From assembly GCA_000091205.1 (NCBI GenBank), contig AP006496.2: a DNA stretch of 64,000 nt; one strand, written 5' to 3'. A program made the translations under genes and the position numbers. The notes beneath the pieces are model-generated. The model was not told the DNA's origin, did not search any database, and saw nothing but the letters and a program-made list of their open reading frames with translations. Every line of letters begins with the position of its first letter. Position 1 is the first letter of the stretch. Origin of the DNA: Cyanidioschyzon merolae. Lineage: Eukaryota. Shown here in pieces: positions 601 through 57,077 of this stretch.

Positions 601-1731
601 TTGGAAATAGGTCAACTTGGCGGTGAACGAGGACCTGGTAGTACTGGCAAGTGGCCCTGTCGACGACACTGTGGAGGCATGTTCACCGGTGGCGAAGCAT
701 TTGCGCCAGCGCCTCATCGTCCCATGTCAAGACTAGGTCGCCAGCGCTGGGCTAGCGCTGCTGGTGAGTCCGACACGCACCAGGCCCAAGCAGCACAGTG
801 TCGCGGCAGGCAGCACTTGGTAGCTCTCGACGGAGCAACCGCCACTGCGGCTGCCGCTACAGAAGGGCACTTTCGTACAGCTGCAACAGTACTGCCCGTT
901 AGGGTGTCGAGCACGATTCCATCGCAACTTTCACGAAAGTCAGCAGCACGAGCAGTCACAGCAGCGACAGTGATGTGTTCGTCACCGTACGAGCACCGGC
1001 ACTCTGCGGAAACGTCCCCCGGATTGCAACGTGTTGCTAGTTCCGCGACGACCGCTGCGACATCGCGAGACCAACCCATTGTATTCTTCTTTGATGTGAT
1101 GGATACTCTTGTTTGTGACCCTTTTTTCAAGGACATGCACCTTCACTTTGGATTTGACAAACGCGAGGACTTTCTCGCCGCAAAGCACCCGGAGACCTGG
1201 ATTCGCTTCGAGCGAGGTGAACTCTCGGTTACCGATCTGGAGCACCTCTTCTTCAGACCGCTGCACACGCTCCCATTGCACTTGGCAAAGCATGCAAGGT
1301 TCAATGCCCGTCGCTTTGAAGCGTATCTTCGCGAGTCTTACAGATTCATGGATGAAGGCATAGAACCGCTGCTCGAGTGGCTTGCATCGCGACAGCCTCC
1401 TGGCACGCTGCATATTCTCTCGAACTACCCCTGCTACTATCGATTCATTGAAGAGAAGTTGGGTCTATCGAGGTACTTATCGTGGACGGCGGTCAGCTGT
1501 GAAACCGGCCTCCGGAAACCTGATCCTCGGGCCTATGCCGAGGCGGCAACGCGGGCTGGCGCGTCAGCTTCACAATGCGTTCTGATCGATGACCAAAAGC
1601 GGAACATTGACGGTGCTCTGGCTGCTGGCTTTGGGGCGGCAATCCTCTATCCCGGCACGAGTTCGGCGTTGCGCTCTCTTCTGGAAGAGTTTCTAGATGG
1701 AAACAACGTCGGCAAGAAGGTGGGCTTTTGA
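601..1731 (+). CDS. HAD-superfamily hydrolase/phosphatase-like protein. The ORF-track start is upstream; the probable ATG is at 973.
   Basis: Motif I 'FFFDVMDTLV' (DxDT) sits near the N-terminus counted from the M at 973. The C-terminal 'CVLIDDQKRNIDGALAAGFGAAIL' resembles HAD motif IV (DD...A.AG). The ORF-track N-terminus (601-972) is low-complexity and probably not coding. Confidence 0.55.
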   Translation: MEIGQLGGERGPGSTGKWPCRRHCGGMFTGGEAFAPAPHRPMSRLGRQRWASAAGESDTHQAQAAQCRGRQHLVALDGATATAAAATEGHFRTAATVLPVRVSSTIPSQLSRKSAARAVTAATVMCSSPYEHRHSAETSPGLQRVASSATTAATSRDQPIVFFFDVMDTLVCDPFFKDMHLHFGFDKREDFLAAKHPETWIRFERGELSVTDLEHLFFRPLHTLPLHLAKHARFNARRFEAYLRESYRFMDEGIEPLLEWLASRQPPGTLHILSNYPCYYRFIEEKLGLSRYLSWTAVSCETGLRKPDPRAYAEAATRAGASASQCVLIDDQKRNIDGALAAGFGAAILYPGTSSALRSLLEEFLDGNNVGKKVGF

Positions 1732-4321
1732 ATGCACTGGATGCGTGTTTTGTAAGGAGATTTTGCATAGAACTCGAGGGTATCGGAGAATGCAGACGCT
1801 TACACCAGCATATGCTCCGAGGCTGCCTCGAACAACGTTCGTAACGACGCGATTCGATCCAATTTAGTACAGTCGAGAGAGCAAGCCTGTCCTGCTCGTG
1901 TCGAGCGAGATCGCCGCGTGGAATAGTACTCAGCGCTGCTCTGGATCCTGCCAGTGGATTGCCCACAACTGCCAGAATACGTATTCGCAAAGCGCAGGGA
2001 TCGAGCGACAGATGACTTTGCGGACACCACTTCTCTTGGTGAGTCGGCGCCAGCGATCGGTAAAACTGGTTCCGTTCATGGACAAGGCGGCACGGATACG
2101 CTCGATTTGCGGTCTGGCAAGGAAACGAAACACGCTGTAGTGTCTACGAAGCCAAGTACGTTCAAGGCAGCAGCTTTGTTCGGCCATAGGTTAGAATCGT
2201 TCCATGAGACATGCAGCATGTAACAGAGACTATGAAGCGTGCAAGTGTATTTCTGGACTGCGTGCACACGCCAGAATCGGCATTGGCCGTCAAAAAAGCA
2301 GGCTGAAAGGTATTCTCTGTGTTTCCAAGGACGCATTCGGACTCGTTCAGTAAATCAACGGGCTTCATCGAGAACGCGGACGCAGGACTGGAGGTCGACG
2401 TGCGTACGGATGCGGCAGCGCTATCCGCAGCATCACTTGAACCAGATCTGGAAGGGGCTTGTTGTGAAGTATACCTCTGTTGCTTCACTTGTTGGTATTC
2501 GAGCCATTCGGATGCTCCGTATTTGCTCCGCATCATCAACACCGTGCTGAACGGCTCCCGTGGCGTGTATGTGTCCATGAAAGCGACGCGAGCTCAGAGT
2601 CTCGAGTGCATGTCGAGATCGCACTGCAAATTCCCGTTAAAAGGATGCGACGCTCACCATCAAATGCAGCTTCCAACGATAAATCTCTGTACACGGGTTT
2701 GTGGTGGCAGGTTGTCCCATTGCCGTCCAGATGGGTGCACACCTTCTGAGCAATATGCAGCAGCGTTTGCATATTTTCAATCGGCAAAACGTTTGCATAG
2801 GCCAGCGTTCTCCGATTGTGCGCTCTTTCTTTTCTTACTTTTTTTCAATGTGCGGTGAAGTATCCATCAAACATCCTACCTCCAAGTTACATCACCTATA
2901 CTTCTTCTCGGATATTCTGGTGGTTTTATAAGTTCTATCACTCACCTAATGCGCGCCCTGCTAGTCCGCAAAGGCTCCTGAACCGCTGGAACGGGTTCAC
3001 CACAGTGACAGAACGGCGTTACCGTACCACAGCGGGCGTCGGCTCGAGGCGTGCTTCACCCGACGTAGAATCGGGTCTCATCGTCAGTTTGTGCTCAGTC
3101 AGTCTGCGGATGCAGGCTTGCCTTCGCTGCACGAAACGCTGGAGGAACTTGGCTGTTAGGATGAATTCTGGGAGTCGTCTGTCTCCTTCGTGATCATGCA
3201 TGGAATGCGTTCTTGGTTGGCAATGCGGGTTTGTGCTTGACACCCACCACAGTGGGTAGGCGCAGAGAGCACTGGGCCCGTGTGCGCATCCGATTCGCTG
3301 GACCTTCCGCTTGGAAGGTAGCATGTGAGTTTGTTCGCCACTGATGAGCGCTGAGGCTCGGTTAATGGACCATCAGTTGCCAGTGCTACACTCAGAGTGA
3401 GTGTCCGGCCTTCGTCTATCACGGTGAAGCCCAGCTGCTGCTGTCCTTCAAGGAGCTCGGTTCGCTCCTGTTTCCAGCGCGGGCACTGTAAGCCTAAATA
3501 TGCCAGCGTCTCCGGAATCTCGTCTCGATAGCAGGGACAGTGTTATTCCCAGTGCGATTCCAGTGTTCCTATACGGCTTAGAGACGGTGCTGCTCGCCAG
3601 AAGCCACCGACGCGTATTGTGGCGAGCCACTAGGTACCTCGAGCTAGTCCCGGGAACTCCAGCGCCTCCCACCAGTACGTGCATGAACAGGCTAGGCTGT
3701 AGTTCCGGTACAGAGTCAAGCCGGCGTTGAGGGCGCGACTGGTTCCGTGGCTACGTTCCCATATTGTTGTTTGGACCGTTCGCTTAAGGCGGCGGGAGCC
3801 TTCTATATTTCTGGGGAACGATTGGGGAGCGTGTTTTCGCCTAGGGGGCGCTTCAGCCAAATCTGCGTTGATTTCAACCAAGTGATCTTGCGGTGCATTG
3901 GGGTTTGCATGGATATGCGACTGAACCAGGTGTGCATGGTGGGCCCTTTGGCCCATATACGTGCCCGGTATCCTGCTGCTATCGCTTCTGTCGAGGATTT
4001 CTGGAGTTCAAGTCCGAGTGCCAGGAGGTATCGCGGTCGATACGCGCACCTCCATATCTGGCGGGCATGAAACACCACGCGCATGTCGCCGTTAAAGGGA
4101 AACGTGATCGCGATCTTTAGCGTGTTGCTCTCAAGTACGAGTTGTATTTGCGTTAAAGTCATAGCAGAGTATACTTTACAGTTCAATTATGTTTCAACCT
4201 TCTTAAACATATCAAGGAACCCCACAGGGAAACGTTGCGAGACGCTATCGAAAAACGTGTCGACTCGTACTCGAAGAGTATTGTCAAGGCGTCGTCAGGA
4301 CTGATGCATTTGGCGAGGTAG

Positions 4322-6450
4322 ATGTATCGCGAAGTGGCGCACATGGAAACGGTCGAGATTCCGGACGAGTTTTTCGACAAGACCTTTATTCGTCAGCTGA
4401 TGCTTGGCACAGGGGAAGCGCGGAGGGAAACTCAGATAGTGCATGCCCTCCACGAAAACTTCGCGGAATTCCGCTTCGAAGGTAATCGATACAAGGGTGA
4501 CTCGACTATTTACATATACGGGGCGGTGAAGTACCTCACGAACCTGAGGAACCATTTGACGATGGACCTCGAACATTTTATGATACGCGCCGTGTTCGCT
4601 CTCGACCCGCGCATCTCTCGCAAAGGTGCATAGGCGATGATCAATGGCATCACGAAAGATCGCAAGCGTGAAGATGAGGTCGAATTTGTCGACAAGAAGG
4701 CGTCAAAAGAGTGCGTGAATGAAGCTTCTGTAATCCGTGCGGCTATCCAAGAGCATCGTGCGGTACTGGGGTTTGTTAATCCAACAGAAAAGATATCAGA
4801 GTTGAAAAAAGACAAGGAAAGATACTATCGCCTCGTCCTGCGGTATTTCGTGTTTCTGGACCGAGAGCTCGAACGCAAAGCGGAGACGAAGCTGAGTGAG
4901 GAGAGAAATAAAGAGTGGGAGAGACGGGCGGCTTCGCTCATGGGAAGCGCTTCTACGTGGTTCCAATGTGCAACATCAAGTCACATTTTGTGACGATCGA
5001 CTCCAGCATCCTCTATGGCATCATGAGACAGATCAGTGGGGAGTTCGATGTTAGCAACGGGAAGTTCATCGGTGAAAATCGGGAGATGCACTAGAAGAAT
5101 ACCTTCGAGTTCAAACTTCTCAAAGCGGGCAAGCAAAAGTTGTTCACTGGGATGATCGAAACCGATGGAGTAGCCTTGTGTGTACACGATCCGCGGTTGA
5201 AGAAAGATCGTTCAGTGCCGTCCTCGGCTACGCCCGTGACGAAGGATGCAGAAAACAAAGCGGCGGATCCTGCGACGCAGCAGGTAGAGGATAACGACCT
5301 TGTCGTTGGTACGGCGAAGCATGAAGATGAGAAGGAGGCGGGTCTTGAGACGCAGAAAGTGCAGGATAACGACTTTGTCGTTGGCGCGGCGAAGCATAAA
5401 GATGAGAAGGAGGCGGGTCTTGAAACGCAGAAAGTGCAGGATAACGACTTTGTCGTTGGCGCGGACCCCGGGAACACGAATATCGTAACCATCGCAGCAT
5501 CCACGCCTGGGGAAGATGATACTGACGGTGACTTACGTCAGAGAGACATGCGACTTTTGAGATTCCCGACAACGAGATGCTATCGAGAATCCGGTATAAC
5601 GAATGCAAGGAAGAGAATCGAGATATGGAATGCAGGAGTGAAAGAGCACTTCGAAGCTTTGAGCGAGGTAACGAGCCGCGGAACGGACTTTCGAGCTTTT
5701 CGGGAATTCCTGCAAGTTCGTGTTGCTCATTGGGATGCGCTGTGGAGGAGTATACAAAGCCTCGGTGGGCTCGTTTGCGAATGAACTTGCACTGTGGGAA
5801 GCAGCGTGCATTCGCGAATTTTTTCAATGAGTTGCGTGCCCTGAAGGAGGATGAAAGTCAGAGGCCCGTAGTAGCGTCTTGGGCAGGGCGATGGAAGACC
5901 CAAACAGGGACTACTCCAGCTCCAACGACGAGGGTATGCAAGGAGTGTGCACGGCGTTTCGTTACAATACCGATAGATGAGTTTCGAGCATCGTATACAC
6001 ACCACGAGCTGGGTTGTACACTTCAGAGGGTCGAGATGGAAACGTGTCAGCGGCGCCCTGAGGATACAAAAAGTACGGACCGCTGACGGAAGAGCAAATG
6101 GAAAGGAGGGCGACAGTTCGTGGACTCCTTGCACTAGCGCTTTCTGCAAACAACGGCAAGAAACGTATCGAATCGTGAACGGAGACTTTAACGCCGCTAT
6201 CAATATAAGGAAATGTGCGGTGATGGAAAGAAGACCTCCAGAGTAGACAAGTGAGAACTTTGGGGACAACCTCTCAGCGTGGGACTATATGAGAAAAAGC
6301 TGGAAGCAGTAGTGAGTGGCCGCCCCCAAAAAACCGGGAGGCACCTGCACGACAGTTGGAGGCTTCTTGTCTAGGGCGGGCTTCGCGCCACTATTGTACA
6401 AGGTCGGCATCGTTTTTGTTTTGAAAGGCGGTGGTGGTGTGGTGTGTGTA
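4322..6450 (+). pseudogene. Near full-length TnpB/Fanzor-like RuvC nuclease pseudogene (family 1, copy A), with an in-frame stop at 4634 and frameshifts.
   Basis: About 640 codons run across consecutive ORFs 4322..4633, 4637..4993, 5140..5784, 5577..6086 and 5977..6246. RuvC-I is 'VVGADPGNTNIV' at ~5458-5475. RuvC-II with its zinc ribbon is 'IPIDEFRASYTHHELGC' at ~5970-6015, continued by 'CTSAFC' in the next frame. RuvC-III is 'NGDFNAAINIRKC' at 6184-6207. A 3' non-coding tail at 6250-6450 is conserved with copies B and C. Composition from 4100 to 5100 is more AT-rich than the flanks. Confidence 0.7.
5282..5460 (+). repeat. Tandem repeat of about 60 bp, 2.5 units, inside Fanzor-like copy A.
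   Basis: The translated units are 'KHEDEKEAGLETQKVQDNDFVVGAA', repeated. The last unit ends in the RuvC-I 'NDFVVGADPGN' box. Confidence 0.8.
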
Positions 6451-12464: not shown

Positions 12465-14697
12465 TTGCAGAACCGCTTGTTTGCTCGCGTAAAACATGTA
12501 CACTGACCAAGATCAAAATGCAGGAACGCCAATATCTTCTACGAATTGCCTGGGAGAATCGGTCCCGGTTTCTGTATACAGCGATTCAGGCTTGCTGGAC
12601 GCCTGCTTCGTGGAACCCCAGTGTCTCGCGATCGGCGAGAGTCCAACGCGCTCTCACCCGACCACTGATGTATTTGCATCGCAAGTCTTCGGCAATTCAG
12701 TGCATTACCTAGACTGTGTTCTAAACAATGCCCTCCAAGTCCACGCACCCCAGAGCCGCTAAAAGCCCCGGAGGCATGACATCATCGTCGAAAAATGACC
12801 AAGGTGTTCAAGTCTGTGTCCAGAGAGTGCTTGCGCGCATGGTCGCTGGCGGAATCACACGGAAACGAGCGTCGCTCCATCGATCGCATGGCCATCCGAC
12901 GTTTCCTCATCTTAACGGACATCTTCTGATGCATATGAATTTGTTTGCAATCCCATCTTCCCGATCTATTCCAGGTGCACCTGTGCTCTTTATAAGCGTA
13001 CCTCGTCCGAAACGCATCGGTGTTCGTGGTCCAGAATCGATTCCTGCACCCGTCGCACGTTGTCGTCGAAGGATGCGGCGTGCCGCTTTCGTGCGTGGCA
13101 CTACGTCCAGCGTTATTGGATACCACGAAACGGCGCCTCGTATCGGCGATTTCCATCTTCAATTCATTGCAATGTATCATGGATGCACGCATGTTGCCTC
13201 CTTAGAACCGAGACCTGTGGAGATGTCGGCTCGGTTTCGTGGGCACCCGCCAAAGATCGCCCGCATGAGCCGCTTGGACGCTCATCTACGCTCTCTGAAT
13301 AAAGCCTCCAAAACGTCCCTTCTGCTTGGTAGGGTGCTCAGAGCATGGTGATGTGTTCGGATACCGTCATGCCAACTGTTCGTATTCCTTTTAGCGTTCC
13401 TATGTCCGACGCTCAATCATACAGATCCCTCGACAAACGGAGCAGCTCCAACTGCTTTCCGTTCCTGCGTTTCGCCCCGTGCGCTCGATTTTTCTGTACA
13501 GCAACGACCATGACGATCTTGGACCCGGAATCCGGGCTCACCACGAAGCGTTCCTCTTCAGCTGCCTTGCACGGGTGAAAACGAGTCTCGTTAGATAACT
13601 CAGGCCTTGATTTCAGGAGTTTTACACAGATCATGCAGATGGATATTCTGTCGGTCTCTCAAGTCTTTGCGTACTTCTTTCCATTTTCTGCCCGTCTACG
13701 GGGAACCTTGATCGAGCTCCACCAATGCCCATTGCGAACTTTGTCGAATGCTTCATCGTTGATCACAGGTACCGACTACATCGCTTGTTCTTGCGCGGTA
13801 TGCTGCTATAGATGTCGCCTCTAGACTTCATACCCGCTTACTTCCGGTTAGTTCAGACGCACTGGATGCGCAGCAACACAGAATCACGTCTTTTCTATGT
13901 ATTTACCCACCATTCCTCGACTACAATTCATTCACCCTCTACGTCGTGAGCACGCTCACGGGCAGAAGCGAACCTTTCTGCCCCGGCCCGAGCTCGAGTA
14001 GAGAAGCGGCGTACCTGTCCAATGGTGCTGAAGGTAGAGAACAACTCGAGTAGAAACATGCGAGTTTCAAAACGGTGTTCGATAACAGACAAGACACCTG
14101 CGACTGCACTTACCTGGATCGACAGAACTTCTACACTAGCCAGGCATCGCCGATTCCGCGATTATCGTCGGTATCGCGGAGCGTGTCTCTCGTTCTTCGT
14201 ACGACATTCAAGCTCCGTAACCCATACTTATCCATGGAGATTCTGGCCATTCCGTACGTTTCATCGTGCTTCAAACCTGCCGTGAACGTCCGTCATAGCA
14301 CTTGTGGCGCCGGTGCGCACGCTACATGGAACAGAGCAGTGTTGTTTTGGACTGTACTGATGTAGGGCGAATAGGCTGGCCCAGGGAGCAGCTCAACGCC
14401 AATCTCAGCTGCATAATCCCTCGGCCGCTTTTGAGTGATGCAACCCGAAGTCGTCCATGACCAGGACAGAATCGTGTCGGCAGGAGAATCAGCGAGCAGT
14501 ACTGCGATGAAGGATGCAGTGTTTTACCATACTGCCGCTCTGGCGACGAACAGACGACCGCATGATTGCATCGTCGCTCGGGAAGCTGTTGTGGACGCGC
14601 GCGCATGGCCGCCTCTGTACGAAGAGCGGTTTGCCCCTACTGGAGTTCCCCTGCAAACGCCTGTCATGTCAAGTCTCGTCGAGTGAGCCGAACACGT

Positions 14698-24949: not shown

Positions 24950-25560
24950 CGACTGGTGACGTCGTTTCGCTTCGATGCGTGGCGTTGTCCATAAAATGAT
25001 GCAATGTTTCAAAAGTTACATCTTCTATGCGTACGCATGCCCGAGGGGCATACGTGTTCCGTGGAGCAGTGCCCGAGCATGGCGGCGGGTGCTCCATATA
25101 CATGTCCGTAAAACTTGAAATGTTCTACGACCACGACGGGTATGCGTACATTTTTACGCGCTTACGCCTCTTAGCTTTTCTGACCGGCATTCTGCTATCG
25201 GTTTCAGCTTCTCCTTGCACAGTTCGAGCCTGACAGGCTGCCAAGTGAAGCAGGAATTGTGTCAGCTCCTCGGGTCTCGTCTTCAGCACCGCACATCGTA
25301 TGATATTGATGACGGCGTTGAAGTCTCGCTTCACCAACTCCTTGCGTTTATTGCCTCTGGTTGAACTCACCAATGCAAGGATTGCTAGAACTCGTGCTCT
25401 CTGTGCCGTTTGCTGCAGTGTCAGCGCTGCGCTGCCTTCTCTCCATCACGATCTTCTGCAGTGTACATCCCAGCACATCCCTTACATATTTTGATTCTTC
25501 AAATGTACGCACTTCTTTATGCCCGTAGGTAAGGAATTCCCCTGAAAGAGAAGGACTGGT
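24950..25560 (-). mobile_element. TnpB/Fanzor-like 3' fragment, family 1 copy B.
   Basis: Minus ORF 25125..25373 carries 'KRDFNAVINIIRCAVLKTRPEELTQ' (RuvC-III). The upstream frame 'EVRTFEESKYVRDVLGCTLQKIVMERRQR' is homologous to copy A 'IDEFRASYTHHELGCTLQRVEMETCQRR'. The 3' tail at 24950-25125 aligns with copy C (for example 'cgatgtgcggtgctga.gacgagacccg.ggagctgac'). It sits within 70 bp of the helicase start codon. Confidence 0.65.
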
Positions 25561-26188
25561 GGCAGAAACAGGTCATGCGCCCTGGTGTGTCACCGTGTGC
25601 TGAACGCATCAGCGATTCGCCCAGTGCAGCGATGTTTACGTTTCACGATGGAAAACATACACTGAATGGGCATGAACCACGGAGTGTACGGCGGAATGAA
25701 AATCAGCACTATCCCCGCCAGAATTTGCAAAAACCCCGAACTTAACGGTAATCTAGAAATGCCACGTGGTCCTTTAGAAGAGCGTCGTCATACGGCATCG
25801 AAAATTCTCCAATGATTCGACAAAGAACGTGCTGTTGTATCAGCCTTGCCTGTGAGCGAAACTGAGGCCGCCAAGTGGATCCGCTCCACCTGGACCAGAC
25901 GATGATTTCCGAGTTCTCCTCACGTTCGATTGTACATACAACGGAACACCCTGCTCCGCGAATACCCGTATACGCTCCAACCGTCTCATCCGATGAAAGT
26001 CTCATCAACTGAAAAAACAAACCGACTTGCCTGTGCTTCATACCGATGGTTGAGTTCTGTGAATTCTGTTGTTGCGGATTCGGCGGAAGCTGTGCTTTCG
26101 TGAACCTGGACTTTATTGCGCCCGGATCCCAGTGTTTTGAGGGTCAAACGAACAATCTGTTGAGAAACAGAGACGCTTGTGGGAACTA

Positions 26189-27255: not shown

Positions 27256-28863
27256 AACTGTGACTTCGGCGACTGCACCGCGACTTGCCCGGTGCAGAGT
27301 ACCAATCGGATTGCATTCGGTCTTGGTGAACAGGGGATTGCTGGAGTTACGGCCCGAGGAATTTATGATATACGCTTTGAAGTTGCTAAATAACAGATGG
27401 CGGCGGGAGCATTCGGAGCGGAAACGCATGCACCACATCTGGGGCAAATGATATTTAGGCGATAGAACATGGTATCTTTACAGTCTGCCGCAGCACAGCG
27501 ACCTTGTGTGTCGTACCCTGAGTTCTTTTACACACGCATCACCGTCCCTGAGTAGATTGTGTACGTTCGTTTCCGCAAGCTTGCGAACCAAATGCGGATT
27601 CAAGGCCATGCGAGTAGTTTGTCCCGAATACGTATGGGCGAGGTTTCGGAAACATGATCTTGGTTCCGATGTGGACGCCTATCCCGAAAGGAACGGGATG
27701 TAACCAGCCTTATAAACAGAGCAGTTAATTCTAGAACAGCTGTACCAGCACGCTCTTTCTGTTGGTACATGTCATTCTCGCGGGTATTAAAGAAACAGAT
27801 AGTATCCTCTAGACTAGAGAATCGTCACGGAAATTCGAAAAAAATGTCACTATTTGGGAATGAAATGGCCTCACTTCAATAAATCAGTAATTCTACGCCC
27901 ATCAGCCGGATGAGTCATGTCCCTCGTTGGCAATATGCTGAGCGCCGTGCACCAGAAATAGAACATATCAGACGCTGTCTGCACAACTGTCTCCTGATCG
28001 TTTCATTCTAATCCATGCGATCTCAAAGCAACGCTACCCAAGCATTCATAAGATGCAGAGATTCCGTGCCGCACATGTGAACGGAGATGAAGAGACACCG
28101 ATGGACAAAGAAAAAACAAGCTTCCATGGCAGACCGTGGCGCGTTGAACCGGACACAATCGAATTCGCACTGAAACGCGACCGCATACGATACGAGCTAC
28201 AGCTATTCGTCCCAGTCGATGAGCGTGTACGCGGAAGAAACCCTAGACATGTATAGGAGCATTCAAAGAGTGGTAAAACGCTGCTCGCAGGGAAGGGGTG
28301 ACAGAACATGACGACTTGAGAGTTACGATACCTCGCAGGTCTCACGAAAGTGCAGCAGTAGAAGCTCGCTCTCCCCTGGTCGAGACCTATGTAAACTGTA
28401 GCGGGGAGCAAGTACTGAGAAACTGAAACCGATCGGAATCGGCTGGTCAAAAAAGTCTCGGAGGCGCCTGCGCGTGCGTAGATGTATCCGCCATCGATGG
28501 TTGTGAAACGTTCTCGTTCTGCTGACCATTGAGAATATCGACTGGTACCGGTGAATCACGCCTTGGTCCCTCGCCTTGATCGACTTGACAAAACTGTTCT
28601 GTCTCCGTGCTGCATGCGCGCCGGCACGATCAGCGCACTATCGCGGAGGCTCGCGGCCCACGATGCAACGTAAGAAACAACCAGTCTCGCTGGGGGATCG
28701 TACGGGTACTGGAACTTGGAAGCAGGTGAAACCACGAATGCTTCCTCTGATCGCTGGCATCAAGCGCACAATGGCAGAGATCCCTGGTCTATATGTGTAG
28801 ACGAGCTGTCGAGCACGAGGCATCTGGAGAATGTGTCGAAAAAACACCCGTGATCATCATCAT

Positions 28864-31504: not shown

Positions 31505-31620
31505 CGAGCAGGCGATGCAGCGGCGAGCAGGCGATGCAGCGGCGAGCAGGCAATGCAGCGAAGAGCAGGCGATGCAGCGGGCGTGAAGGCAATGCAGCGG
31601 CGTGAAGGCGATGCAGCGAT
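31505..31620. repeat. Minisatellite of a 19-20 bp unit, about 6 copies, in the 5' flank of the PNPOx-like gene.
   Basis: Repeats of 'agcaggcgatgcagcggcg' with variants (gcaatgcagcgaag, gtgaaggcaatgcagcgg). Confidence 0.8.
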
Positions 31621-47839: not shown

Positions 47840-48529
47840 ATGACAAGCACAGGAATGCCCGATCAGCACATTTGTATGCATTTGTGCAGTTTTACTGCGA
47901 AAAGCAGAGTCAGCGTCATGCCACATTGGAGCTGGCTCGTGAGCGAGCCCAGGAAACGACGGGAAACGCGGCACCAGTTGGCGACTACGAAACGGTGCCG
48001 GAGGCACTACGGAGGCGTCCCTGCAGTCCAGCTCGGCTGCAGTGTGCGATCCAAGGCACCGAGTCTGCGGTATCGAATGCACGTACGGCGGCTTCTCATG
48101 AACGCGTTCCTCTATAATCATTGACCTGGTCCATTGGAACGAATCTAGGAAGCAGGGAACGGCTCGAAAGGCGCATCGACGTAATTAGACGAGTCTATGT
48201 CAATGCCAGAGGCAGTGCGGGATCGACGTCGCGGTCCTTTACGGCGTACGAGGTACGCCCCTCACCGTGATGCATTGCATGGTACGCAACGGCATCCAGA
48301 GCCACACCTGGATGGCCGGATTGAGTCCAGTTCTGCGATGTACCGAAGGTTTACACGCAGGACATGCGGGCATCGCCCGTTCTAGACATTGTGTAGCCTT
48401 GCGGTGCCGCCAAAGGCTGACGCCGGCGATACGCGCTGCTTCTTTAGGGTCGTATGGATTGTTCGACATCCGCGCTGATGCTCCAGATGGAAGCTGTGCC
48501 AGACCTGGTGGTGAACCCTTAAACCATCG

Positions 48530-48823
48530 GAAGCGGCGCTTCGGTTGCTTGCCGGACAGACGGCAGCATTCACGTATTTGGAAGCGTTCATTGAAACGCA
48601 ATGATTCTTCACGCTAAAAAAGTATCAGAAGCGGCGCTGCGGTTGCTTGCCGGACAGACGGCAGCATTCACGTATTTGGGAGCGTTCATTGAAACGCAAT
48701 GATTCTTCACGCTAAAAAAGTATCAGAAGCGGCGCTGCGGTTGCTTGCCGGACAGACGGCAGCATTCACGTATTTGGGAGCGTTCATTGAAACGCAATGA
48801 TTCTTCACGCTAAAAAAGTATCA
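48530..48823. repeat. Tandem repeat of a 98-bp unit, 3 copies.
   Basis: The unit 'gaagcggcgctgcggttgcttgccggacagacggcagcattcacgtatttgggagcgttcattgaaacgcaatgattcttcacgctaaaaaagtatca' begins at ~48530, 48628 and 48726 with 2 mismatches. A fourth unit diverges at 48824. Confidence 0.85.
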
Positions 48824-49575
48824 GAAGCGCCTGTGGAGCCGTTGTCGGTGCCCTGGCATATCCAGTAATATCGGAGAAAGAAACAACCATATCTTTCGCC
48901 GATTGCTCAGAAGCATGGTATCCGACTCAAAAATAGAGCAATCCAATCGTGTTGGATGACGGAACCGCACTATACCAGCGCCTTGCCCCAGGCGAGAGTT
49001 CAACACCGGCTCTCCGGGCTGCTGATTTCCTTTTCATCGAAAGGCTGCAGCAATCCAACACCATGCCAACACTGAGTACTGACGATTACGTCGAAAGTTG
49101 AGGCGACATAGAGCCTTTGCAGGCACCACAGGAGACTCCGTTGCATCAATCCCTACATTTCTGAGCCAGCAAGATGAGACTACAACGCCCACAGCGTGTC
49201 CCTCATTAAGCGCTTTACAGTGCCTCGCACATGATGTGTTCGTTTGGCTGTATACGTACTGGGACCGACGCTGTAGCTGGTCAGATGGTCATTGGAAATG
49301 GCGACCCATCAATGTATCCCGTGAAACGTGTGTGCAAGGCGGTAATCCTACGATCCAGCCGCATCTCATCTACTGCATCGAGCATCAGTAGTGTTCCCGC
49401 ACGCAGGTTTGATTGAAAGATCCCAGAGGAATACGGATAGCGGACAACCATGCCTCCAGAACTTTTATGGAAAGTTGGCTGAAGCGGTGCGACATGGCGA
49501 GGGAGGCTCGTCGAGCCTCTTCCAAGTACGAAGCTGAGCGATCCCGAACGACATCCTGCATCGCGTTTTCGGGGG

Positions 49576-50150
49576 ATGCTCGCCTTTCATATGCTTCCAT
49601 CGGAAGCCCGTGACAATAGCCTCATACTGGCCTGCCGGTTTCGAGTGTGCTTCTATTTTTATTGTACTCTTTTCGAGAGGATCTCCCACTTCTCTCACTG
49701 GTGGAATTGTGTCCTCCTCGTGCACCTTGCAGGGCGGCATGGATTTGGTCGCTATGCTCTTCGTCCGTGTTCTTCATCGAAATTCAAACGAATTCGGTGG
49801 ACGACGGGACCAGAATTCTACTGTTCTATGTATGTCTCTACGATTCCTCAGGCGGCTTTTCGTCATCTAACAGAGGCAAGAAACGCCTGGAGTTCGTGAA
49901 CTGAGACGTTAACGCCGCCGTCCATATCAGACGATGTGCGGTGCTGATGACGAGACCCGCGGAGCTGACGCAATCTAACCTTGTGGGGTAGTTTCTCTCG
50001 CTCGAAATATGCAAGGAAAAACTGAAGTCGATAGCAGGGGCCCGCCGAAAAAGACCAGGAGGCGTCCGCACGTCAGTGGGCAGACATAGAGCCTACGGCG
50101 GGCATAGCGCCGCTCGTCACCACTGTACACCGGCTGTATAGCGTTTGTCG
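49576..50150 (+). mobile_element. TnpB/Fanzor-like 3' fragment, family 1 copy C.
   Basis: The RuvC-III box 'RDVNAAVHIRRCAVLMTRPAELTQ' begins at 49905. The downstream tail, 'gcaaggaaaaactgaagtcgatagcaggggcccgccgaaaaagaccaggaggcgtccgcacgt', is conserved with copy B (minus strand, 24950-25125) and with the copy A tail (6300-6400). The upstream frames are disrupted. Confidence 0.6.
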
Positions 50151-50199
50151 CTTGAAAGGCGTGTCGCTCTTGCTGGTAGCGAATGCCTGCGTGGCTGCT

Positions 50200-56831: not shown

Positions 56832-57077
56832 TTCACTCAACACGTCACTTCAAACCATCGATGTCGATCGAAAGTCGCGTCGTCATTTGTCTACGATCAT
56901 CGAGGAAACTGCATCCGATAACAGCATGATACTGCCTACGTGACTTGATCCCGGTTCACTCAACACGTCACTTCAAACCATCGATGTCGATCGAAAGTCG
57001 CGTCGTCATTTGTCTACGATCATCGAGGAAACTGCATCCGATAACAGCATGATACTGCCTACGTGCCTTGATCCCGG
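56832..57077. repeat. Direct tandem duplication of a 123-bp unit, 2 copies with 1 mismatch, immediately 5' of Fanzor-like family 2 copy 3.
   Basis: The unit 'ttcactcaacacgtcacttcaaaccatcgatgtcgatcgaaagtcgcgtcgtcatttgtctacgatcatcgaggaaactgcatccgataacagcatgatactgcctacgtg.cttgatcccgg' is repeated. Confidence 0.85.

Follow-up and report, generated by a model that had tools for sequence, protein, structure and literature searches.

Fanzor1 proteins are eukaryotic homologues of TnpB, and a CxxC...CxxC zinc ribbon (TNB) between the RuvC-II and RuvC-III motifs is typical of TnpB and Fanzor proteins. According to the descriptions of PDB entries 8GKH and 9CEU-9CF3, Fanzor1 is an omega-RNA-guided DNA endonuclease. 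In Cyanidioschyzon merolae, a Fanzor1 protein named CMe-1 is carried by the element CMe-1A, which was described by Bao & Jurka (2013, Mobile DNA 4:12; PMC3627910) as a family of about 150 copies, each ~80% identical to a ~3-kb consensus. As reported in that work, CMe-1A is devoid of terminal inverted repeats (TIRs), its target-site duplications were not determined, some of its open reading frames (ORFs) are still intact, and its coding capacity was remarked to be maintained; the 5' 635 bp of the element correspond to the repeat TE-N2_CMe, and the zinc ribbon was not used to exclude CMe-1 (PMC3627910). The transposition mode of the element has been unclassified since 2013, and Fanzor1 genes were also found in Tc1/mariner-type transposons, e.g., PUl-1 of Pythium ultimum (PMC3627910). 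Here, we analyzed a stretch of 64,000 nucleotides of C. merolae contig AP006496.2 (referred to as the window), which carries on its plus strand a degenerate Fanzor-like gene with an internal tandem duplication, designated Copy A. The results indicated that Copy A is very probably a dead, neutrally decaying copy of CMe-1A, that the CMe-1A gene is a Fanzor1 gene, and that the internal duplication is a coding minisatellite.

The 3169-bp CMe-1A consensus was taken from the supplement of PMC3627910 and aligned to the window. Three blocks were obtained, in which window positions 4029-4202 match consensus 645-819 (86% identity), 4199-5309 match 1080-2191 (85%), and 5385-6430 match 2117-3169 (86%). 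Consensus 820-1079, which includes the ATG at 906, is missing from Copy A, whereas the single repeat unit of the consensus (2121-2195) matches Copy A three times. The similarity runs along the length of the element and the right end of Copy A is the consensus end 3169, which places the copy in the CMe-1A family. At the protein level, a BLASTP alignment of the repaired Copy A protein with the published 734-amino-acid (aa) CMe-1 was collinear over residues 59-710, with 487 of 702 positions identical, and its sole large gap comprises the 50 residues of two extra repeat units. Copy A further resembles the published family in the absence of TIRs and in belonging to a set of many, mostly degenerate copies with few intact ones. 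It differs in having lost the 260 bp named above, in the number of 75-bp repeat units (three in Copy A and 1-6 in its relatives versus one in the consensus), and in its 5' end, as described below.

Three-frame translation of positions 4150-6400 revealed five collinear pieces, located in frame 2 (4322-4945), frame 1 (4942-5745), frame 3 (5745-6071), frame 2 (6056-6172), and frame 1 (6172-6246). The long collinear TnpB/Fanzor-like frame of the original prediction is therefore present, and its estimate of ~640 codons agrees with the 642 codons counted from position 4322. However, the homology reaches upstream to ~4199, giving ~683 codons, and the range of 5282-6246 proposed earlier covers only the 3' half of a degenerate coding remnant that spans 4199-6246 within an element core of 4029-6430. 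It had also been suggested that Copy A would be the best template in the window for reconstructing the ancestral protein. It is indeed the most complete copy there, since the other Fanzor copies in the window are fragments, but reconstruction from Copy A is unnecessary because the CMe-1A consensus and near-intact paralogs such as P0001 (see below) exist. The window has a G+C content of ~55% and long intron-free ORFs, which is compatible with a Cyanidioschyzon-type genome. When three window proteins were looked up by exact match, two were retrieved from metagenome and SRA assemblies (JGI, ENA, and Logan) alone, and the third gave no record.

The assignment to Fanzor1 was obtained at the level of the family. 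A Pfam scan of the repaired Copy A protein gave no match, and when this protein alone was compared with the PDB, only SpuFz1 was retrieved, at a nonsignificant E value of 1.2; for this reason, a profile was needed for the PDB search. A database search yielded 116 relatives, which fall in the precomputed family PF26935 (DUF8286). The best of them was near-intact P0001, whose uninterrupted ORF of 752 aa lies on a metagenome contig of 49 kb. A family profile built from 39 sequences, the repaired Copy A included, then matched PpFz1 (E = 6.6e-21), SpuFz1 (E = 9.4e-15), and GtFz1 (E = 1.9e-6), and no other PDB family. The alignments pass through DPG (RuvC-I), DEFRT (RuvC-II), and NRDxNAAxN (RuvC-III), and the catalytic D, E, and D are invariant columns in two alignments of 39-42 relatives (A1 and A4), with all three codons kept in Copy A (Table 1). 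Since the family aligns with characterized Fanzor1 proteins across RuvC-I, RuvC-II, and RuvC-III, the Fanzor interpretation of Copy A stands.

Structure prediction pointed in the same direction. An AlphaFold2 model was computed for the near-intact paralog P0001 rather than for Copy A, with a mean predicted local distance difference test (pLDDT) score of 79.5 and a predicted template modeling (pTM) score of 0.76. In a Foldseek search of the PDB with this model, the top seven hits were all SpuFz, PpFz, or GtFz chains (E values of 2.5e-16 to 1.3e-13; target-normalized TM scores of 0.51-0.73), and Cas12 proteins ranked after them. On the basis of this model, P0001 is predicted to have a Fanzor1-type fold (WED-REC-RuvC). 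Thus, CMe-1 shares with SpuFz1 (8GKH), PpFz1 (9CF0), and GtFz1 (9CER) profile homology over REC, WED, and RuvC, together with the three RuvC motifs, albeit at a sequence identity of only 13-15%. The three described proteins are omega-RNA-guided enzymes that cleave double-stranded DNA by a single RuvC site, and by homology to them CMe-1 would be an RNA-guided RuvC DNA endonuclease acting by the same mechanism, with a guide that would presumably be an omega-RNA, for which the 3' end of the element would be the template. The CMe-1 clade departs from these enzymes in that it is devoid of the canonical zinc-ribbon cysteines and has a variable repeat loop before RuvC-I. In addition, the element that carries SpuFz1 is flanked by TIRs, which are absent from CMe-1A.

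Lesions were mapped by comparing Copy A with six other copies and with the CMe-1A consensus. A 260-bp deletion at ~4199-4202 has removed the ATG and the first 58 codons, and the remaining frame is interrupted by four 1-bp deletions and three internal in-frame TAG stops before it is closed by a premature TAG (Table 1). With these lesions, Copy A cannot make the protein. The pseudogene reading of the original prediction is thus borne out, and so are its frame changes, of which at least three had been claimed; the stops are more numerous than the single one it had placed at 4634. Two of the internal stops (4631 and 5092) are TGG-to-TAG changes, i.e., G-to-A transitions at conserved Trp codons. 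The metagenome contig L061, which represents the same locus and is 98.6% identical over 4050-5922, has in common with Copy A the 260-bp deletion, the two 5'-most frameshifts, and each of the three internal stops. Because L061 carries the same lesions within its span, sequencing errors are an unlikely source of the single-base gaps.

As for selection, 20 substitutions separate Copy A from L061 in the coding remnant, and by our tally from the list of differences they fall 6/6/8 on codon positions 1/2/3, an even, neutral-looking spread. The ratio of nonsynonymous to synonymous substitution rates (dN/dS) between copies is 0.3-0.5, and that between Copy A and other copies is 0.33-0.51. These values reflect purifying selection that acted on the active lineages from which the copies arose, in agreement with the published remark on maintained coding capacity. 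Most of the 80 family loci that were fetched are themselves broken.

The internal duplication was detected by Tandem Repeats Finder (TRF) as an array at 5262-5464 with a period of 75, 2.7 copies, and 90% matches (score 315), which is far beyond chance. In codon register, it consists of three full units of 75 bp (25 codons), and the next codon after unit 3 is that of the RuvC-I Asp. A tandem repeat abutting the motif DFVVGADPGN, as had been predicted, is therefore present, and its three units are also found in L061 with one base different. The unit had been given as 60 bp and ~2.5 copies; the 60-bp figure must be a miscount, as the 25-residue peptide quoted with it implies 75 bp. It had also been proposed that the N-terminal half of the catalytic motif was copied. 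This holds for the beta-strand DNDFVVGA that precedes the Asp, but the catalytic Asp itself was not copied. Units 1 and 2 of Copy A are 76% identical, while units 2 and 3 are identical at 73 of 75 positions (97%), and both of the latter are nearest to the last unit of other copies. Since unit 1 resembles first units and units 2 and 3 resemble last units, Copy A descends from an ancestor with two units, one of the "first" and one of the "last" type, and only the third unit is specific to Copy A. The unit abutting RuvC-I was thus duplicated recently.

The number of units was then determined in 82 copies from the distance between two flanking anchors. The anchor-to-anchor distances (MINISATELLITE) were only 89, 164, 239, 314, 389, and 464 bp, plus a parallel series that is 12 bp shorter, corresponding to 1-6 units. 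Three units (239 bp) is the commonest class and accounts for 20 copies, including Copy A and L061; copies with a long ORF have 2-6 units, extra units are lacking in relatives at ~40% identity, and a single unit is present in the published consensus. The identity between adjacent units is mostly 71-85%, but near-identical neighbors (91-97%) occur in units 1-2 of L036 (97%), units 2-3 of L041 (96%), and units 3-4 of L080 (97%), as well as in L008 and L076 (93%). Because these near-identical neighbors sit at different array positions in several copies, unit duplication is recurrent. The array is thus a family-wide copy-number polymorphism rather than a lesion of Copy A, and with head-to-tail units within the range of 10-100 bp (period 75) present in variable number, it is a coding minisatellite, or variable number tandem repeat (VNTR). 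As in coding minisatellites of protein linkers, the unit is a multiple of three, its number is polymorphic, young units stand beside old diverged ones, and the product is predicted to be disordered. The present array is different in that it lies within a multicopy transposon gene and that a catalytic domain takes its first beta-strand from the last unit. The coding repeat and its copy-number polymorphism are not mentioned in the 2013 CMe-1A paper (PMC3627910). The 75-bp repeat and its 1-6 unit polymorphism beside RuvC-I are the only novelty of the locus relative to that paper, and a modest curiosity; the CMe-1A Fanzor1 family is already known, and Copy A is otherwise a largely ordinary member of it.

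In the P0001 model, residues 375-471, which comprise units 1-3 and the greater part of unit 4, have a pLDDT of <50, whereas the strand at 478-484 (DFIVGAD) is confidently modeled and leads into the catalytic Asp. The extra units are hence predicted to be disordered. Each 75-bp unit encodes a linker, acidic and disordered, together with the hydrophobic strand (DNDFVVGA) leading into the RuvC-I Asp. The array grows and shrinks among the members of the family, with replication slippage or unequal exchange as the presumed mechanism. Only the final unit would have to supply beta-strand 1 of RuvC, and the upstream units would merely lengthen the loop between the preceding strands (P0001 350-370, assigned tentatively to WED) and RuvC, which would explain why long-ORF copies tolerate extra units. 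Since the unit is a multiple of three, slippage keeps the frame without selection. The variation has a practical side, in that expressing a "CMe-1" Fanzor for genome-editing tests requires a repeat number to be chosen and the published consensus hides the range of 1-6 units; in turn, the natural repeat-number variants provide a ready-made insertion-tolerance experiment at the putative WED/RuvC junction.

Three other explanations were weighed against a dead CMe-1A copy with a coding minisatellite. The view of Copy A as a functional spliced gene, with short introns in place of frame changes and with the repeat as an ordinary protein domain, is favored by the retention of all catalytic D/E/D codons, by the dN/dS of 0.33-0.51 against other copies, and by the eukaryotic host. 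However, each frame change is a 1-bp deletion relative to six paralogs and the consensus, with no inserted intron, and in near-intact paralogs the gene is one uninterrupted ORF; an origin of the frame changes from introns was rejected on the ground of these deletions. Moreover, two of the stops lie at conserved Trp codons and one at a Glu codon, the deletion has taken away the ATG and 58 codons, the substitutions that arose after Copy A and L061 split are even over codon positions, and the low dN/dS is inherited from the active lineage before insertion, so that a spliced gene is scarcely credible. Very improbable too is an assembly artefact, by which the tandem repeat or its copy number would result from repeat collapse or expansion. 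Tandem repeats in high-copy elements are prone to misassembly, and the copies used for comparison come mostly from short-read metagenome contigs, yet the independent L061 assembly of the locus has the same three units apart from one base, the units of Copy A differ among themselves (76% and 97% identity), and the spacers in the 82 copies vary by exactly 75 bp per step, with unit sequences that are distinct. The artefact was rejected on the step spacing with distinct units and on the agreement of L061.

Repeat expansion could also be an adaptive, selected trait of active Fanzor1 copies, e.g., a tunable linker or a decoy strand by the active site, of which Copy A would keep a functional variant. 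All units of the long-ORF copies, 2-6 in number, are in frame in 75-bp multiples, every unit includes the strand before the catalytic Asp, and the expansion is confined to the CMe-1 clade, being absent from relatives at ~40% identity. Nevertheless, in-frame multiples follow from slippage of a 75-bp unit without selection, the extra units are predicted to be disordered, and their sequences diverge fast (typically 71-85% identity between neighbors); young duplications occur at varied array positions and also in clearly dead copies such as Copy A, and the published consensus is conceptually functional with one unit. We consider the adaptive explanation improbable and retain that of a neutrally decaying CMe-1A copy that carries a family-wide coding minisatellite.

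Several observations weigh against parts of the retained reading. The CxxC...CxxC zinc-ribbon cysteines were looked for between RuvC-II and RuvC-III and are absent in the CMe-1 clade, where the position reads ...YTHHELGCTLQRVEMEKCQR... and only HH...C...C is left (P0001 residues 656-725; window ~5979-6186). PF07282 is subthreshold or absent in close relatives, and only two distant ones, P0114 and P0116, come near its cutoff; P0116 retains the cysteines. The absence in the CMe-1 clade looks like a derived loss. Because these cysteines are absent, nuclease activity cannot be assumed for CMe-1, and for the clade as a whole it is presumed from homology. A second set of observations concerns the 3' end as a putative omega-RNA. 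The RNAalifold consensus of the tail is weak (-5.8 kcal/mol), and in a hand-drawn four-stem model no covariation or excess pairing was found, with 76.6% of cells paired versus 77.6% in shuffles; the covariation test is uninformative rather than negative, as such an outcome would be expected if most copies are neutrally decaying. An omega-RNA at this position is hence put forward as a hypothesis. Finally, the young units 2 and 3 of Copy A have diverged by 2.7%, compared with a divergence of ~14% between Copy A and the consensus, and many lesions are common to L061; for these reasons the duplication most likely occurred in an already dead copy. Judged from divergence levels, unit 3 thus probably postdates the inactivation of the gene.

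The 3' tail itself was aligned across 44 copies and is well conserved among them, both in the last ~35 codons and in the ~60 noncoding nucleotides (nt) that extend to the right end. In Copy A, a long-range stem pairs ~6308-6317 with 6388-6396, and a terminal hairpin (6406-6430) lies exactly at the element terminus. The equivalent RNA of near-intact L001 folds at -63.3 kcal/mol (z = -2.58 versus shuffles) into a long-range stem that encloses three hairpins and is followed by the terminal hairpin. Two variants of the terminal hairpin were seen among the right ends of L001-L081, CGTCGTTCGA-CTT-TCGAACGGCG and AACGTTTTTC-TTTT-GAAAGGCGTT, both with G-U pairs that work only on plus-strand RNA. A G/T-rich simple tail of ~15-25 nt follows many copies. 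Rfam and tRNA scans of the whole window gave no match.

At its 5' end, Copy A departs from the published element. Instead of the TE-N2_CMe sequence that makes up the first 635 bp of CMe-1A, a different module of ~1.25 kb, termed element B, precedes the core at the same junction. The first ~300 bp of element B do resemble TE-N2_CMe (window 2875-3081 versus consensus 84-288, 75% identity). A search for an ORF on the minus strand of element B gave only a short or broken frame, and the plus strand was not examined in detail. In L057, L025, and L024, element B lies inverted beside the core. The junction at 4028/4029 (consensus ~643) is sharp and common to all copies, and at least four unrelated upstream modules meet the core at this same base (e.g., L005 4227-4668, L014 4019-4673, and L043 400-1597), while the 3' end is constant. 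In light of these at least four alternative 5' modules among its relatives, the 5' departure of Copy A looks like a subfamily difference.

A fixed 3' end combined with a variable 5' end may bear on how CMe-1A moves. One could go further and regard the CMe-1 clade, with its hypervariable in-frame 25-residue repeat before the RuvC-I strand (tolerated or even exploited), zinc-ribbon loss, fixed junction to at least four interchangeable 5' modules, conserved 3' hairpin, and G/T-rich tail, as an unusual Fanzor1 lineage that differs in nuclease properties and in mobilization, the latter being possibly one-ended or 3' anchored; we regard this extension as doubtful. As a separate observation, L001 and L003 (21-1609) share 97.6% identity over a stretch that begins with the upstream module and includes the core and the right flank, but they are completely different upstream of it, where L003 carries an inverted partial Fanzor copy, which suggests a rearrangement or a nested insertion between strains.

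The nearest outgroup proteins are P0070 and its cluster, at ~40% identity. Their genes lie directly downstream of a DDE_3 (Tc1/mariner-type) transposase gene (L090-L093, gene 1501-3600; L094), which is the likeness to Tc1/mariner-borne Fanzor1 genes such as that of PUl-1; by contrast, CMe-1A has no transposase gene and no TIRs and has alternative 5' modules. The P0070-type elements end ~185 nt past the stop codon in ...GTGTTCCACAWTTCA.TTTC.TGAGTATA (...GAGTATA), and no convincing TIRs were found in these mariner-associated relatives, for which the available contigs may be too short. Their 3' tails have no sequence similarity alignable to CMe-1A from which covariation could be drawn. The fixed core, the swappable 5' modules, the terminal hairpin, the G/T-rich tail, and the mariner-borne nearest relatives offer concrete hypotheses on the mechanism of transposition, whereas Copy A by itself is of little importance, being a further dead member of a transposon family published with its consensus in 2013.

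Table 1. Coordinates of features of Copy A, its flanks, and related or repeated sequences elsewhere in the window
Feature	Position	Strand	Remarks
Upstream repeated module "element B," ~1.25 kb	2774-4024	+	Joined to the Fanzor core at the fixed junction; 86% identical to L001 8404-9671
CMe-1A core, 5' untranslated part (consensus 645-819)	4029-4202	+	86.3% identity to consensus; reaches the junction of the 260-bp deletion
Degenerate Fanzor1 (CMe-1) coding sequence	4199-6246	+	Collinear with consensus residues 59-710
In-frame TAG (Glu in the family)	4319-4321	+	Common to L061
In-frame TAG at a conserved Trp codon (stop placed at 4634 originally)	4631-4633	+	Common to L061
1-bp deletion, frame 2 to 1	4941-4942	+	Common to L061
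In-frame TAG at a conserved Trp codon	5092-5094	+	Common to L061
Repeat unit 1, TKDAENKAADPATQQVEDNDLVVGT	5239-5313	+	Nearest to unit 1 of L041, L071, L037, L035, and L012 (85-88%)
Repeat unit 2, AKHEDEKEAGLETQKVQDNDFVVGA	5314-5388	+	Nearest to terminal units of L079, L035, L080, L060, and others (up to 92%)
Repeat unit 3, AKHKDEKEAGLETQKVQDNDFVVGA	5389-5463	+	Young duplicate of unit 2; strand into RuvC-I; also in L061
RuvC-I catalytic Asp codon, GAC in GADPGN	5464-5466	+	Invariant column; aligned to DPG/DPN of PpFz, SpuFz, and GtFz
1-bp deletion, frame 1 to 3	5743-5744	+	Common to L061
RuvC-II catalytic Glu codon, GAG in IDEFRAS	5979-5981	+	Invariant column; aligned to DEFRTS/DEYKTS of Fanzor1 structures
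1-bp deletion, frame 3 to 2	6069-6070	+	Comparison with other copies
1-bp deletion, frame 2 to 1	6172-6173	+	Comparison with other copies
RuvC-III catalytic Asp codon, GAC in NGDFNAAINI (NRDFNAAINI in the family)	6184-6186	+	Invariant column; aligned to NRD of Fanzor1 structures
Premature TAG closing the predicted ORF	6244-6246	+	Consensus comparison; consensus protein ~40 residues longer
Conserved 3' tail: remnant of the last ~35 codons and noncoding sequence to the right end; candidate omega-RNA scaffold region	6247-6430	+	Aligned across 44 copies
G/T-rich simple tail, GTGGTGGTGTGGTGTGTGT	6431-6449	+	Right-end panel; similar tails follow many copies
Solo TE-N2_CMe-like fragments	9-278 and 28586-28728	- (both)	68-74% identity with CMe-1A consensus 1-266
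Fragment of a divergent second Fanzor1 lineage	12785-13760	-	28-34% identical to the CMe-1 clade; closest to P0063
3'-terminal CMe-1A-like fragment	25257-25623	-	Consensus 2810-2985
Tandem repeat, 19 bp x 5.9	31505-31618		87% matches
Tandem repeat, 98 bp x 3.1	48526-48829		98% matches; ~1 kb upstream of the Fanzor fragment at 49860
3'-terminal CMe-1A-like fragment with conserved 3' tail	49860-50161	+	Consensus 2889-3169
Tandem repeat, 123 bp x 2.0	56832-57077		99% matches

Besides Copy A, three more Fanzor fragments occur in the window, along with three TE-N2-like pieces; of these pieces, one lies inside element B (Table 1). The protein closest to the divergent fragment, P0063, groups with the mariner-associated P0070 at ~40% identity to CMe-1. 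This fragment overlaps a 207-aa ORF on the opposite strand.

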